From: Felis catus
Lineage: Eukaryota
Assembly (NCBI RefSeq): GCF_018350175.1
Contig: NC_058382.1
Span: forward strand, 48,858,001 to 48,922,000
Length of the DNA: 64,000 nt
Direction: 5' to 3'
Shown here: piece after piece, positions 19,568-26,631 of the stretch
How the letters are laid out: every line of letters starts with the position of its first letter
How positions within the stretch are numbered: position 1 is the first letter of the stretch
The notes under the pieces: model-generated
What the model was told of the DNA's origin: nothing
Databases searched by the model: none
Seen by the model: only the letters and a program-made list of their open reading frames with translations
Position numbers and translations under genes: made by a program

Positions 19568-19606
19568 CTACTGACTGCCCTCCTGGTCTGATGCATGATT
19601 CTTCAC
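19568..19606 (-). CDS. RALY/hnRNP C-like gene, predicted last coding exon (VKNHASDQEGSQ*)
   Basis: Strong acceptor gtcctgcttctgtctttctacag|; phase 0 matches upstream donor; in-frame TAG. Confidence 0.6.
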   Translation of the reverse strand: MKNHASDQEGSQ

Positions 19607-20526
19607 CTGTAGAAAGACAGAAGCAGGACTCTGGCCAGGAGGAATGAGAGCCATGGGGTGTCTGGGAAAGGGAGGTCTGTCTGCCAACATCTCCCCTCAC
19701 CCCCACATCTCTTTCTGGGCAGCTCGGGCAGCTCAGTGCTCCTCGAGATTCTTCTAGAGGCCTGGGAACCCAGAACCCCTAGATAAAACAAACATTCCCT
19801 TCCTCTAGCCCAGTCTTTCCCCAGATGTGACTCAGGCCTGGGCAATAGTAATGGCCCTCCAGAGCCCAGCAGTTGGAGGGGCAAAGCTGGACAGGTGGAG
19901 GAAGGGAAGTTCATTACTGCCAGCCCCTCCACCGGCATCCTGGGCCCTGTTGAGATGGCCCAAACAAACCCGGGGCTCGGCCTATCTCAGGGACTACCAA
20001 TAAGGGAGGAGGATATGGTAGGTCAGGGAACATTTGGGCCCTTTGATGTTGCACGAAGGGCTCTTATCAGACTCAGGTTGGATGTTCTCCATCCGGGAAG
20101 GTCCATGTGCCACAGCTTCCCCAGGGAGCACGGTACAATATAAGATGTGGGGGCAGGGAAAAGGCAGAAATCGGTTTTAACAAGCTTGCCAGGTGGTTCT
20201 CAGGCAAGGGGTGTTGGGCCATGAGGCACAGCTGTGATGTCTGTGGTGCTCAAAGCCCGCCTCCCGGCTTCCGGGGGAAGATGGTATTTCAGCCCAGAAG
20301 TGGCCCAGCTAGTCCAGCTGAGCTCATCAAGCCTGAGTTGAGAGGGGGAGACAACGCAGTGCAGGGCCCATCTTCTGGCGCTTGCCTGCGGTAGAAGTCC
20401 TGTGTCTCCCCTCAACCACCACTGTGGGCTCCCGCACAAACCCGAGTCTCTCCCTTGTTCACAGGGAGGCCACAAGGACTCAAACGCAGGGAGGGTGAGG
20501 ATGAGGGGAGGTGCCGGGCCACTCAC

Positions 20527-20669
20527 TGTCTCCTCTGGGTCTATGCTGTCCTCGGGGCTGTCTGCTTCTGGATGGGGCCTCTGGCCCCTGGGCTCCTGCT
20601 TGGCTTCAGTGTTGCTGCGTGAGGATCTCTTACTCACCAGGGCCCTGTTTTCTTCACTGGCCTCTGACC
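20527..20669 (-). CDS. RALY/hnRNP C-like gene, acidic/low-complexity exon
   Basis: Branch point cactaac and ...ccctcaacag| acceptor; GSEASEENRALVSKRSSRSNTEAKQEPRGQRPHPEADSPEDSIDPEET|gtgagt; internal alternative donor after 20638. Confidence 0.7.
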
Positions 20670-21029
20670 CTGTTGAGGGACAGTCGCCAGTTAGTGGCCG
20701 GGTTTGGAGGTCCCGGCTGATCTCAGAGAGGCTGCTTGGTGCCCGGCACTGATCTAGGGTGCCTAGGGCTTGAGACGACAAGATGGGGGTGGACTGGGAC
20801 ACTGCTCTGCCCCCAGACAGCTGCTGAGTGGTGGGGGGAAGGTCCTAGAACAACCTTGAAGCCATAGGGTCTTCAGCCATGGGGACAACCAGACCCTGGG
20901 GAGGGCAGGAAGGAGCCCTGCAGATGGAAAGCAGGATGCCAGGTGCCATGCCCCCTGGCACCTTCAGCAGTGGGCAAAGCTGGAGCTCACTTGGAGTGCA
21001 GGCTGGGCCCCCAGTTGGAGGTGCTTGAC

Positions 21030-21143
21030 CCAGAAGCTGGTCCCTCTGCTGGTCCATGCGCTCCAGAGTCTCCAACAGACGGTCCACCTGGGCTTTGATC
21101 TGGCTTAGCTCCCCCCTGATGGAGTGCAGCTCCTCGGTCTGGA
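21030..21143 (-). CDS. RALY/hnRNP C-like gene, coiled-coil (leucine zipper) exon
   Basis: LQTEELHSIRGELSQIKAQVDRLLETLERMDQQRDQLL versus hnRNP C [38 protein letters not shown]; phase 1-1; alternative donor after 20991. Confidence 0.85.
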
Positions 21144-21288
21144 CTGTGTGGAGAGGGGCCGGAGCTGGTGTCCCACGGCCCAGGAGGCAGAGGGCATAGC
21201 TGCCCATGCTCCCGGGCCTGCCCTCACTGCCGAGGTCCTCCCAGCTCTTTCCTAGCCCTGTAGGTGAAGGCTCTGCCCCTTCACTCAC

Positions 21289-23041: not shown

Positions 23042-24744
23042 CCTCCCTTCCATTTTTTTTTTCTTACAACTTTTTGACGTAGTCAAAAATGAATGGTGTA
23101 GGAATGATATTTCATTGACTGCTTAGCACAGACTGGAGAGCAGCCTGAGTTGAAACACACACAGGATGGGTTTGGGAATTAGATGTTAGGCTACGTGCGC
23201 CCCACAGCCGTCCTTGCTGCAGTTACGGGGTCCCTCTTGGCCTGAAGGAAGGTGGGCTCTGGTGCCGGCCCTCCTACCCTCATCCCACCCCATGCCACCC
23301 CTCAGTCATCAGCCAGGGCTGATGGCAACTGCCCTTGAGTCTTTTCCCCCAAGGGGCAGTGGCCTGGTCACATGGCTTCTCCGTGCTCTGTCCTCTGATC
23401 TGGGTTAATTGCTACAGTCTGCGAGTCCGGGCTTCCCACAAAAGGAGAAATAGAACACTCCTTCAGAACGGTGCTGTGGGCAGAGGTCAAACCACCTGTG
23501 TCCGCGGGGACTTGGGACAATCCTCACACCACAGGCCTTTCCCTACAGGTTGAAAAATTCCATTTGGAGGCTCAGGTCACATGTCCTGGACTTGACTAGT
23601 TCTCACGGACAGGTCATCCAGCAGCTCAGCAGCTGCCAGAACACATCCCCAACCTGTCGTTCCTCTGGGCACCATCCTAAGACCCAGAGCCACAGTCCCA
23701 GCTGCCCACCCACTGCTGCCCTGGACCCAGGCGGCGCCAGTGACAGCCCCCTACCCCCCACCCCCACCCCGCAAAATGCTTCATTCTCCCTACTGGAGTC
23801 TCTACTGGGGATGTGTGACTTAAGGAAGTCACCCCTGCCCCCAGCCTTGAAGGCGGGGTCCCCTCTGAATGGAGTCCGAGCCCCTGCCAGGCAGCTGCCA
23901 TTACGCCCCATTGCCTCCCTATTCCTGCACCTGCACCCTTCAGAAGGCTGGCAGAAGCAGGTCAGAGCAGGCTGGGAAGGTAGTGGGGGAGGACAGGAAA
24001 TCCGAAGGTGACAAAGCGAAGAACTGAGGCCCTTAGGGGCAATGGGGTTGATTCCCATGGTCAGTTTGGGGTGTGCAGGAGGCCTCAAAAGTGGCCTCAA
24101 AAGTGGCCACGGTAAAAAAGCACATGAGAGAACTACAGCAGAGAACCACTTTGCTCCTATCAGACAGTGATAATTACCAAACCCCCAGAATCACGAGATG
24201 CAAGGCAAACCAACACCACATATGCAGTTCTGCTCCACTGAAGAGATGCGAGTTTAAAAAACCGCATTACCTGTGAGCACACACCTACTCATCAGCCCCA
24301 AACAAACGCAGTGCAAAAGCCACCCACGCCGGCACACTCACAGGGTGACACAGACCTTCAGGCTGACGCTGACAGGGAGAGATTTGGCTTAATCTCTCTC
24401 AAGGTCAACCTGGAGGTTCAGGGACTTCTCAGATCAGCCCCCAGCCCAACCCCGCCATCTCCTTTCCAGGAAGATGAGGCAAGGTGAAACCCAAAAGAGA
24501 CTGGAAACTTTGGCCCCAGGGGATTTACACACTGCTGTTCCTAACAGCAAACACCTGCCCCACCGCCTCCTCCACCGCAAGACAGAAACCACCCAAATGC
24601 CCGCAGGAGGGCCAGGAGCTGAGTGAGGCCATCACAGATGCCCAGCTGAGGGGACACTCGTTACGCCTGTGAAAAGGGCACGTTAGCTGGCAGAACGTGA
24701 CAAGCTCCTTTCTGAAAATGTTTAAAGATTTCTTAATATTATCC

Positions 24745-24954
24745 TCTTTTTTTTTTAATGTTTATTTTGTTATTGTTGGGAGAGAGAGAGCAAGCATGAG
24801 TTGGGGAAGGGCAGAGAGAAAGGGAAACCAAGAATCTGAAGCAGGCTCCATGCTGTCAGCACAGAGCCTGACTTGGGGTTCAAATTCACAAACCCTGAGA
24901 TCAAGACCTGAGCCGAAGTCACATGGTTAACCGACTGAGCCGCACAGGCACCCC
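24745..24954 (-). mobile_element. Can-SINE
   Basis: Reverse SINEC structure. Confidence 0.8.
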
Positions 24955-25363
24955 TTAACATTTTCTTACACTTCCCAAGTTAGGGGCAAGATTTCATCCA
25001 GGGAAGTTCCCATTTGCTACTTCCCAAATATCTGTACCTGGAAAAAGCCCCCAAGCACCATGAAGGTGGGGATCCCCTGGGAGGACCCATGCCCCCTGGC
25101 TCCAGGTGGGAGGAGGGGGCATCCTGCCTCGGTCAGCAGGTGGTGCTGGGTGACATCAGCGATGAGAAGCCTTGGAATGAACGGGTCATCTCCTTCAGTT
25201 TATGGACAAAAGCTGAGGCCGAGTGAGAAGGAACCCCCAGGTGCCACAGTGAGTTCCCTGAGCTGGCCTCCTGAGCTCCTTGTTCCATCCCAGGGGGACC
25301 CAGAGCCCCAGACAAGCCCGCAAGCAGCCCCCCTCCCCTGCGGACAACCCTGGACAGACTCAC

Positions 25364-25434
25364 CAGGAGATGGCTGTGCCCGGCTGCCTCTTCTGGCCTT
25401 GCTGGGTGGGGCCGGGCCTGGGCTCTCCAGCCAT
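25364..25434 (-). CDS. RALY/hnRNP C-like gene, first recognisable coding exon (exon begins 25442, ATG at 25434)
   Basis: ctctttctctcttcag|AT TTA GAC ATG GCT GGA GAG CCC...TCC TG|gtgagt = (D)LDMAGEPRPGPTQQGQKRQPGTAIS versus RALY/RALYL [10 protein letters not shown]...KR..SA.Y; gacATGg Kozak context. Confidence 0.8.
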
Positions 25435-26631
25435 GTCTAAATCTGAAGAGAGAAAGAGCAGGGCAGAGCATAAGAGGAGGGAGGGAGGGGCGCAGAGGAA
25501 GGGCCCAAGTGCACAGGGGCTTCACTCACTTCCAGGCTGGCCCCTCCCTGCTCCTCAGCCCCCAGGCAGTGGGTATGGTCCCCTGAGTGGCCCCGAGACA
25601 CGGAGCAGCAGAGTGGGCCGCCTGGCCTGACCTCCTTCACACCCCGAACCCACCATGGCAATCAACCGCATTGCCTATGCCCTTGGTGGTACCATCAAAA
25701 GGCAGGAGGGACGATATCCGTGGTCTTCGTGTCCTCTGGGGAGACACCTAGCCCTGGCCAGAGACAGTTTTCGAGTGTTCTGCTGCCTGTCTGCCTGCCC
25801 ACTTGCCTGCCTGCTCCCGGCCCACGCACTGCAGCTGCCTGTGGGCTAAGCCCCTGGGTCGGAGATGGTCGCGGTGGCTCTAAGAGAGAAGCAAAGCCAG
25901 CAGCTGGCCTGCTCTGGGGAACAAACACCCCACTGCCCTCTGTCGGTGGGGGAGGCAAGAGTCGGCCGATCCCATGTAGGGGAGGACTGAGATGGGTCTG
26001 TGCGCCAGTCACCGCAGATCTTCTAGTCTCTGGGCTCCTCTCCTTTGCTGTTCACCACTGGAGAAAGCAGCTCTTCCACAGTGGGAGAGGGAGGGGACTC
26101 CTGCGTACCCTCACTCGGTGCTCAGGGCCTGGCCCTAAGTAAGTGCCACTTGATGTCTGCAGAATTCATGAATGGAAGTCCATGAAATCGATTCTGTTTT
26201 TTTTTTGGGGGGGGGGTTGGATGCGACCCCAGAGTTTCGCTTGTGACTTCAAGGCCCCTCCCCTGAGCCCAACCCCTTTCTTCCTGTCTGTGGTCCACTG
26301 TGGCTGCCAAGATGGTAACAAATGGGAGCCTTCTCATTTTCCTGTTCTCAAGACTTCATGCAACACGAGAGCCAAGAGCACTTACTCAGCACCTGCTTGC
26401 TTGCCGTGGAGAACAGGAGACTGGCCGTAGTGTCTCTGAGGCACTGACGATCCAGACTGTGTGTTTAATTAGGAGGAAGTTGGAATTTATCACCCCCACC
26501 TTAGCCTTCCTCTTCCACTCATGCTTCTGATTCATCCACTCAAGGACACATTACCCAAATGTCCATGTACCAAGGTGAACGTCTGTAGTTTGTCTCGTCT
26601 GGCTTTCTGTGTCTATTCCTTTGGTATATCT

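Follow-up and report, generated by a model that had tools for sequence, protein, structure and literature searches.

Much work has gone into hnRNP C, RALY and RALYL, which regulate how pre-mRNA is packaged and spliced and how stable RNA is. In hnRNP C the basic region before the helix is a bZIP-like RNA-binding motif, and the HNRNPCL genes are intronless primate copies of HNRNPC. Human-based lists (PMC4042849) count HNRNPC, RALY and RALYL as an ohnologue family of three genes, to which a retrocopy is added. A cat RALY/hnRNP C-like gene, here given the working name N4, appears to be a fourth ancient copy that has been overlooked; an automatic model of it is already known under RALYL's name, and a literature search found no published description of it. 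N4 is very probably a genuine protein-coding gene without an RRM that joins HNRNPC, RALY and RALYL as their fourth vertebrate paralogue. Within the window (the whole 64 kb stretch of DNA that was analysed), the neighbours proposed by the initial annotation were both identified: EXOSC6 is a single-exon ORF on the plus strand (16869-17687; Pfam RNase_PH, 7e-29), and CLEC18 is represented by minus-strand CAP and Lectin_C exons (47309-35673).

The gene structure described in the initial annotation could be rebuilt. Six minus-strand exons (25434-25364, 21571-21518, 21437-21289, 21143-21030, 20669-20527 and 19606-19568) join in frame into 570 nt, which encode 189 aa followed by TAG, and every internal border has AG before and GT after the exon. 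The acceptor claimed at 25442 was found as cag|AT, 8 nt upstream of the ATG at 25434, and the downstream AATAAA placed at 18907 occupies 18912-18907. Two borders stood in part. The proposed end of exon 4 (TGG|gtcaag at 21030) is the position-homologous donor, but all five felid models (P0004-P0008) use instead a stronger one, CAA|gtgagc at 20991, which lies 39 nt downstream and adds 13 aa in frame; a similar extension is seen in other carnivore models. The proposed start of exon 3 at 21437 is a modelled acceptor, and so is 21434, the two forming a tandem cag|TAG with database models for both. That the gene might already exist as a LOC model was correct: automatic models were found, including Felis catus "RNA-binding Raly-like protein isoform X3" (P0007), to which a seven-exon join within the window translates exactly, with an extra coding exon (29237-29159) beyond the 19568-25442 span first delimited. 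This usual automatic name is RALYL's own, and some other models are called 'hnRNP C-like'. N4 is single copy in the cat genome (C39:48.8785-48.8872 Mb). Its exons exceed chance by a wide margin: with exon 3 as the sole query, 15 of the 15 scored candidates had E <= 0.01 (best 2.5e-24), and exon 4 by itself matched 1TXP, the solved hnRNP C tetramerisation peptide (E = 0.0015).

Table 1. Coordinates of N4 features in the window and the observations behind them.
Feature	Position	Strand	Basis or remark
Upstream alternative coding exon, isoform X3 start codon, ends in phase 1 before gt	29159..29237	-	tblastn of P0007; exact seven-exon translation
Candidate decayed remnant of ancestral GC-rich first exon	25803..26036	-	weak low-complexity tblastn matches
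Exon homologous to first post-RRM exon of RALY/RALYL/HNRNPC	25364..25442	-	acceptor splits Asp codon G|AT (phase 1); ATG 25434; ends in phase 2
CpG-rich stretch in intron 1	22250..23000		GC 0.64-0.66, CpG observed/expected 0.63-0.70
18-aa acidic-aromatic mini-exon, phase 2 at both ends	21518..21571	-	counterpart of DLDY-type exon at cat HNRNPC locus
Exon 3: the family's most conserved linear motif, then basic stretch	21289..21437	-	tandem acceptor 21437/21434; ends in phase 1
Exon 4: coiled-coil helix, homologous to hnRNP C tetramerisation domain	20991..21143	-	donors 21030 / 20991
Exon 5: net-acidic Ser-rich tail, predicted disordered	20527..20669	-	ends in phase 0
Last coding mini-exon, 12 aa + TAG, after phase-0 intron	19568..19606	-	matching phase-0 donor in cat RALY, RALYL
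Presumed 3' UTR, AATAAA 18912-18907, converges on EXOSC6	18890..19567	-	sequence only

The cat gene has three candidate first exons. The stretch at 25803-26036 has no in-frame ATG, is followed by gt at 25802-25801, and was matched by the N-termini of elephant, platypus and lemur models with E values of 0.002 to 3e-4; it is a possible relic of the ancestral GC-rich first exon. The CpG-rich stretch, the only one in N4, may act as an internal alternative promoter, and the first exon of a hyena model matches 22715-22503 within it. In the fish, bird and reptile models the start codon lies in a short first exon, which is conserved from teleosts to birds.

The expected block-by-block homology to RALY, RALYL and hnRNP C was recovered by tblastn and HMM matches. 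By homology the hnRNP C-type tetramerisation helix is retained in N4, the family profile having 1TXP as its sole match in the PDB (E = 1.1e-7). An acidic C-terminal tail is also present (12 D/E vs 7 K/R in the 47 aa of cat exon 5), and the basic stretch of exon 3 is conserved, although it is shorter than that of hnRNP C and different in sequence. Pfam gave no RRM match in four N4 proteins, whereas RRM_1 was found in RALY, RALYL, HNRNPC and lamprey; tblastn with seven RRM queries detected no trace of one in the window, and none occurs among the 120 N4 models listed by the profile search described below. The six exons are separated by five introns; counting the acceptor that precedes the first of them, this makes six junctions, all of which share positions and phases with cat RALY, RALYL and HNRNPC, the phases being, in order, 1 (G|AT), 2, 2, 1 (before the helix), 1 (after the helix) and 0 (before the last mini-exon). 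With introns at these places, the view that the gene is no retrocopy held, and an HNRNPCL-type origin is ruled out by the ancestral introns together with the vertebrate-wide clade that N4 forms.

The family tree (55 rows x 215 columns, the columns mostly disordered, with a bootstrap that had not fully settled) was rooted, imperfectly, on one lamprey and one hagfish homologue, and gave the topology ((RALY,RALYL),(HNRNPC,N4)). Support was 100/99 for RALY, 98/94 for RALYL, 100/99 for HNRNPC and 100/97 for N4; the first three clades each contain fish and tetrapods, and the N4 clade comprises amniote, lungfish, coelacanth and teleost sequences. Lying in its own clade outside the other three, N4 behaves as the fourth ancient copy that had been suspected rather than as a recent duplicate. 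Of the deeper nodes, (RALY,RALYL) received 100/94 and (HNRNPC,N4) only 95/71. The identity with RALYL that the database name implies was rejected: the clades are separate, the loci differ (cat RALYL at C46:32.64-33.0 Mb, N4 at C39:48.88 Mb), and RALYL+N4 as one clade failed the AU test (p = 0.019, for a grouping chosen after the tree was seen).

By the models recovered, N4 is kept in most vertebrates checked. A profile search returned 184 matches at E <= 1e-3, and the 120 of these that were listed span eutherians, marsupials, platypus, birds, crocodilians, turtles and squamates; 119 of the 120 carry no precomputed Pfam domain, the exception being a cormorant model fused to a C-type lectin. An HMM search of 1.84 billion representatives yielded 343 matches, the named ones including teleosts, lungfish and coelacanth. 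One knifefish species has N4 plus a separate RALYL, and the coelacanth has two different sequences inside the N4 clade. No amphibian or cartilaginous-fish N4 was seen among the nameable sequences from these searches, and protein searches found no human N4 protein model. The N4-like models measure ~190-280 aa, and no domain was called for N4's own part in any of them. Turtle N4 is 83.9% identical to that of crocodile and 73.8% identical to that of platypus (over 210 aligned positions), and the acidic Ser/Thr-rich block of the tail is conserved across amniotes.

N4 would have arisen with HNRNPC, RALY and RALYL before the ray-finned/lobe-finned split, most likely through the two vertebrate genome duplications (2R), and would have kept the whole gene body that follows the RRM, from the post-RRM segment to the terminal mini-exon, with no RRM exon. 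The paralogon predicted from human synteny was recovered in cat, where paralogous members of the MT-MMP-type, WWP/ITCH-type HECT and Agouti families accompany the four genes on their chromosomes. Each of the four genes has one of the four best Peptidase_M10 loci on its chromosome, at a distance of 1.5 Mb for HNRNPC, 1.1 Mb for RALY, 2.6 Mb for RALYL and 14 Mb for N4; these MMP neighbours group in a single clade (100/100), with the copies near RALY and RALYL as a pair (94/98). A HECT gene is found 3.8 Mb from N4, and the two paralogues most similar to it are located 1.2 Mb from RALYL (78% identity) and 0.4 Mb from RALY (72%). The cat genome has just two Agouti-domain loci, one at 0.2 Mb from RALY, the other at 5.9 Mb from N4. 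The neighbours of N4 (3.8-14 Mb away) are more distant than those of the other three genes, and this looser linkage, with the moderate support of the root and deep node and a timing relative to 2R that depends on one lamprey and one hagfish homologue, would also suit an old segmental or tandem-then-translocated duplicate that arose outside 2R before the bony vertebrates diverged. Such an origin is nevertheless very unlikely, since three independent neighbour families lie on the same chromosomes, the MMP neighbours repeat part of the 2+2 topology, and HNRNPC, RALY and RALYL already figure as one 2R-ohnologue family (PMC4042849).

An ancient gene could still be decaying in the cat, and perhaps in placentals generally, into a possibly transcribed relic without protein function. 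Eutherian N4 branches are ~3x those of sauropsids, with a stem of 0.33 and long tips against 0.07-0.09 for turtle, crocodile and ostrich; felid models differ from one another at several residues over ~200 aa; the carnivore donor shift and the 5' exon are lineage-specific; the counterpart of the mini-exon at 21518-21571 is missing from catarrhine and lemming models, and catarrhine and cricetid models have lost both this exon and the acidic character of the tail. Because of the long branches, the felid differences and the catarrhine and cricetid losses, constraint on N4 may be relaxed in placentals, cat included. Complete loss of function is nonetheless improbable: no stop interrupts the frame in any exon and the splice sites match the consensus, exon 3 is 100% identical in five felid models at 98-100% coverage, eight aligned mammalian sequences (seven eutherian species) show no variation in the helix or in the exon 3 motif, and intact models of ~185-200 aa exist in many eutherian orders. 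It is hardly credible that the N4 exons are merely the 3' exons of CLEC18 read-through transcripts and not an independent gene, even though the two genes lie in tandem on the same strand, 6-10 kb apart, and fused CLEC18-plus-N4 models occur in cormorant (P0065), Scotinomys (P0151) and Cricetulus (P0149). Most models stand alone with their own start codon and the conserved first exon, CLEC18 has a terminal exon of its own ending at 35673, and the gene family is older than the adjacency needs to be.

For a fourth paralogue that is a working gene, a mechanism can be outlined from its helix. AlphaFold2 predicted a single confident helix at residues 122-158 (block-mean pLDDT 83-98), with the remainder at low confidence. 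A four-copy prediction of residues 114-160 scored 0.76 against 0.26 for the best of three controls, with at least 88% of contacts common between runs, partner pLDDT of at least 79 and antiparallel contacts; the mark used for this score was reached by 21 of 30 same-chain pairs and 0 of 23 single chains in a calibration on two copies, not four, and the predicted assembly may be remembered from 1TXP. The result supports, as a prediction only, self-association of the N4 helix. We tentatively propose, at somewhat less than an even chance, that N4 is a nuclear, largely disordered protein that would oligomerise through its single helix into an antiparallel bundle similar to the core of the hnRNP C tetramer, and would either provide an RRM-less scaffold or modulate hnRNP C-family particles, alone or co-assembling with its paralogues. 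We infer in this scheme that N4 is expressed, located in the nucleus, oligomeric in cells and active on RNA. On a further and unlikely reading, the whole family would ancestrally have had an RRM-less isoform, starting at an internal first exon that RALYL still uses, and N4 would have become locked into this isoform after the duplications; N4 would then be a dedicated RRM-less subunit co-assembling via its helix with hnRNP C/RALY particles and tuning RNA packaging or selection. The short RRM-less isoforms of RALYL (Xenopus, spiny eel, bat) splice an alternative mini-exon, resembling N4's conserved first exon, onto the same post-RRM exon. If that reading were true, N4 would have escaped study because it is eroded in catarrhine primates and muroid rodents, and the usual model species would be unlike most other vertebrates in their hnRNP C-family regulation.

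A fourth member present from teleosts to carnivores would complete the expected four-copy set. As a natural RRM-less version of the family, N4 would help to separate the roles of helix and tail from RNA recognition, and it would add a case of an ancient gene overlooked through erosion or absence in humans, and perhaps mice. The label "RNA-binding Raly-like protein" can cause N4 and RALYL to be confused wherever expression or orthology is tabulated for dogs, cats, livestock, chicken and fish.

Among its described relatives, N4 has HNRNPC (hnRNP C1/C2) as its sister in the tree, and has in common with it the intron positions and phases after the RRM exon and the order of post-RRM stretch, acidic-aromatic mini-exon, basic stretch, helix and acidic tail. 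Unlike HNRNPC, it is without an RRM, keeps the basic region only partly, lies on a different chromosome, has its own invariant exon 3 motif and C-terminal mini-exon, and is ~190-230 aa long vs ~290-300 aa. RALY is built in the same way, down to the terminal mini-exon that follows a phase-0 intron, and its chromosome, like that of N4, carries an Agouti-family gene and a WWP/ITCH-type HECT gene, but RALY has an RRM and groups with RALYL. The HNRNPCL genes share the 'hnRNP C-like' naming with some N4 models, but N4 has introns at the ancestral positions. RALYL and N4 have similar C-terminal motifs, and the RRM-less form, confined to short isoforms in RALYL, is the only form in N4.

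The initial annotation had proposed a minus-strand gene of six exons (19568..25442) encoding 189 aa, a fourth paralogue of the HNRNPC/RALY/RALYL family, hereafter N4. When the exons were rebuilt from the window, AG was found before and GT after each internal one, and all six (570 nt in total) join into an open frame of 189 aa ending in TAG; a splice acceptor lies 8 nt 5′ of the proposed ATG. The proposed neighbours were also recovered, with an ORF carrying an RNase_PH domain, which fits EXOSC6, on one side and CAP/lectin exons on the other. CLEC18 precedes N4 on the minus strand, ending about 6–10 kb upstream of it, and EXOSC6 is convergent on the N4 3′ end. 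N4 is single copy in the cat genome (contig C39:48.8785-48.8872 Mb), and a genome search placed RALYL, RALY and HNRNPC on contigs C46, C10 and C15, respectively. When sequencing runs were queried with the last exon, the stretch was present in 19 of the 24 runs listed, none of them recorded as RNA. Pfam searches of single N4 exons returned sub-threshold coiled-coil noise only. Elsewhere in the window, where carnivore SINE copies are common, ARAGORN reported tRNA-SeC-like and tRNA-Arg-like elements at 52641-52726 (+) and 58877-58962 (−), both probably tRNA-derived SINEs, and a 263-aa ORF at 59206-59997 (+) looks LINE-derived.

The suggestion that the gene might already exist as a LOC model proved right. 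Seven exons joined from the window give a translation identical at every residue to the 230-aa Felis catus "RNA-binding Raly-like protein isoform X3" (P0007); this isoform has an upstream coding exon additional to those first proposed. With exon 3 alone (49 aa) as query, all 15 candidates scored passed E ≤ 0.01, these being felid, hyena, dog, fox, seal, elephant and tenrec models named "RNA-binding Raly-like protein", "heterogeneous nuclear ribonucleoprotein C-like" or "uncharacterized LOC...". Its acceptor (21434-21437, −) is a tandem cag|TAG, and models with and without the extra serine both exist. The exon 4 donor first proposed (TGG|gtcaag) stands as the ancestral one, occupying the RALY/RALYL donor position and the junction of most non-carnivore models, but felid models use a stronger donor 39 nt downstream (CAA|gtgagc), which adds 13 aa. 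Across carnivore models exon 4 runs beyond the ancestral donor to the stronger one (20991-21030, −), a gain of about 9–13 aa; the models of elephant, lemur, birds and reptiles keep to the ancestral junction.

Table. Coordinates of N4, its candidate first exons and its neighbours in the window
Feature	Position	Strand	Evidence or remark
Exons of P0007 (cat isoform X3)	29237-29159, 25442-25364, 21571-21518, 21434-21289, 21143-20991, 20669-20527, 19606-19568	−	Exact translation
AATAAA downstream of N4	18912-18907	−	Sequence
Candidate N4 first exon, annotated	29.2 kb	−	Isoform X3
Candidate N4 first exon, possible ancestral-exon remnant	26036-25803	−	Weak, low-complexity matches
Candidate N4 first exon, CpG-rich stretch in intron 1	22250-23000		Matches hyena model first exon
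tRNA-Gly(GCC) gene in N4 intron 1	22956-23026	+	At edge of CpG-rich stretch
Single-exon ORF fitting EXOSC6	16869-17687	+	RNase_PH, 7e-29
Class II alanyl-tRNA synthetase domain ORF	6669-7154	+	Domain match
CLEC18-type exons	47309 to 35673	−	CAP and C-type lectin in query protein

At E ≤ 1e-3, a profile built from eight mammalian models retrieved 184 proteins, the best 120 of which covered a wide range of eutherians (carnivores, bats, perissodactyls, cetartiodactyls, lemurs, colugos, beaver, hystricomorph rodents, squirrels, hare, mole, pangolin and afrotheres) together with marsupials, platypus, birds, crocodilians, turtles and squamates. Of those 120 models, 119 lack a precomputed Pfam domain; the remaining one, from a cormorant, is a fusion with a C-type lectin and shows that the CLEC18 adjacency is present in a bird. 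Fused CLEC18 and N4 models were seen in cormorant (P0065) and in the rodents Scotinomys (P0151) and Cricetulus (P0149). Read-through transcription or faulty gene prediction could account for them; they do show that the adjacency has been conserved in a bird and in rodents. A second search, with an HMM built from 21 amniote sequences against 1.84 billion representatives, returned 343 matches at E ≤ 1e-3. Those named among them (30 look-ups) added teleosts (hake, Denticeps, smelt, conger, loach, wrasse, suckers and knifefish), lungfish, coelacanth, cricetid rodents, macaques and gibbons. No amphibian or cartilaginous-fish N4 occurred among the named sequences, which does not imply absence, most of the 343 matches being unnamed.

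Public models of N4 usually carry the protein name of RALYL. An IQ-TREE phylogeny was built from 55 of about 300 proteins on 215 columns, with lamprey and hagfish as the root; fragments, fusions and obviously mis-predicted models were omitted. With clades labelled from source names and PDB matches, and with a bootstrap that had not fully settled, four clades were recovered, namely RALY (100/99), RALYL (98/94), HNRNPC (100/99) and N4 (100/97), the deep nodes being (RALY,RALYL) at 100/94 and (HNRNPC,N4) at 95/71. The claim of a fourth copy is thus upheld by a clade of its own, apart from the other three, and within it amniotes (100/100), teleosts (100/99), lungfish and two coelacanth sequences were placed. 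An origin of N4 as a RALYL duplicate was rejected on the basis of the tree and of the AU test against a RALYL+N4 clade (p = 0.019, for a grouping chosen after the tree had been seen). The knifefish has N4 and a separate RALYL on different contigs. The two coelacanth sequences (P0181 and P0269) are quite different, one of them pairing with lungfish; they may be separate genes, or one of them may be a mis-assembled model.

The earlier statement that N4 is not a retrocopy is confirmed by intron junctions common to the four cat genes. In all of them the acceptor of the post-RRM exon splits an Asp codon (G|AT) and that exon ends in phase 2, a phase-1 junction stands immediately 5′ of the helix, and a phase-1 donor follows the helix at the same or a nearby place, ten residues beyond the heptad end where counted (RALY and N4). 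An acidic-aromatic mini-exon with phase 2 at both ends was found in N4 and HNRNPC, and a phase-0 donor preceding the terminal mini-exon in N4, RALY and RALYL. From teleosts to birds, N4 also has a short conserved first mini-exon spliced to the post-RRM exon. RRM-less RALYL isoforms of Xenopus, spiny eel and bat (P0230, P0255 and P0166) open on a similar mini-exon, joined at the same junction and codon; N4 and RALYL are not sisters in the tree. The most economical interpretation would be that the duplications were preceded by an internal promoter and an RRM-less isoform, and that N4 retained only that form. A search of the 11.5 kb upstream of the post-RRM exon of cat RALYL did not detect the alternative first exon of that gene, which may lie farther away. 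Three candidates exist for the first exon of cat N4 (see Table). The GC-rich first exons of elephant, platypus and lemur models gave weak low-complexity matches to cat at 26036-25803 and 22750-22340, and the stretch at 22250-23000 is the only CpG-rich one of the locus, with GC-box and CCAAT-like elements recognizable by eye. A local rearrangement of the 5′ end was considered and dropped: a search of intron 1 for a duplicated first coding exon returned SINE matches and one 45-nt inverted match only. The two arms of the latter (25631-25675 versus 24038-24082, 87% identity) lie on either side of the region of the first coding exon, and it is probably a piece of an interspersed repeat.

Searches of the cat genome bore out the proposed paralogon, in that MMP-, HECT- and Agouti-type neighbours occur on the chromosomes of the N4 family. 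The four best Peptidase_M10 loci, presumably MMP14/24/16/15, each share a chromosome with one member of the family, at a distance of 1.5 Mb (HNRNPC), 1.1 Mb (RALY), 2.6 Mb (RALYL) and 14 Mb (N4). Their catalytic domains form one clade (100/100) relative to two other MMP loci, and the RALY-side and RALYL-side copies pair (94/98), mirroring the pairing of RALY with RALYL. A HECT gene 3.8 Mb from N4 has its closest genome paralogues near RALYL (1.2 Mb; 78% identity) and RALY (0.4 Mb; 72%), the next being 57% identical; we take these to be ITCH/WWP1/WWP2. The top genome HECT match (C15:59959850-59960597), apparently intronless, with several in-frame stops and 57% identical to a WWP-type exon, may be a processed pseudogene. 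Only two Agouti-domain loci were found in the cat genome, one at 0.2 Mb from RALY and the other at 5.9 Mb from N4; we assume them to be ASIP/AGRP. Passages of one study place RALYL, RALY, HNRPC and HNRCL in one 2R-ohnologue family (PMC4042849), and passages of another discuss agouti-family regions of human chromosomes 20, 16 and 8 (PMC3397983); the passages concerned do not mention a fourth RALY-type gene. N4 is likely a real, ancient, RRM-less fourth paralogue, and we are somewhat less confident that the duplication was 2R itself. Literature searches found no paper on N4, and the "RALYL2" in passages of a feline methylation paper is not N4 but the true RALYL, on another chromosome. The sequence itself is already in databases; what is new is its recognition as a distinct fourth clade without an RRM.

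Identity between N4 proteins is 73.8% for turtle and platypus (210 positions) and 83.9% for turtle and crocodile, and the eutherian branches of N4 in the tree are about threefold longer than the sauropsid ones. A macaque model used as query gave 34 matches, of which seven came from catarrhines (two macaques, langur, orangutan and three gibbon models); no match bore the label Homo, Pan or Gorilla. Six catarrhine models and one lemming model, when aligned, lack the acidic-aromatic mini-exon, and in catarrhine models reaching the 3′ end the acidity of the tail is much reduced, three of them running beyond the usual stop. N4 may have been lost in human and mouse.

Pfam detected RRM_1 in RALY, RALYL, HNRNPC and lamprey proteins and no RRM in the N4 proteins of cat, turtle, hake and lungfish; the RRM parts of seven relatives, used as queries, found no trace within the 64 kb window. 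N4 keeps, in family order, the post-RRM segment, the acidic-aromatic mini-exon and exon 3 with its strongly conserved motif and basic stretch, followed by the helix, a net-acidic Ser/Thr-rich tail and the conserved terminal mini-exon. The only PDB sequence matched by the N4 family profile was 1TXP, the tetramerisation peptide of hnRNP C (E = 1.1e-7), and AlphaFold2 predicted one confident helix, at residues 122-158, with low confidence elsewhere (mean pLDDT 58). A complex model of four copies of residues 114-160 scored 0.76 versus 0.26 for the best of three controls, with at least 88% of contacts common to runs, partner pLDDT of at least 79 and antiparallel contact pairs; the calibration of this mark used two copies rather than four, and 21 of 30 proteins with structures solved as one-chain pairs attained it, against 0 of 23 solved as single chains. 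The model supports, but does not show, that four N4 helices would bind one another, and its pass may be memory, because a like complex has already been solved. Mixed oligomers with the paralogues seem unlikely. In hnRNP C, a basic RNA-binding region precedes the helix, and nuclear retention and localisation signals lie between the RRM and the helix. N4 might accordingly be compared with hnRNP C in two respects, which we propose jointly and tentatively, as possible rather than probable: its helix would oligomerise like the hnRNP C core, and the RRM-less protein would have a nuclear role, as a scaffold or as a modulator of hnRNP C-family particles.
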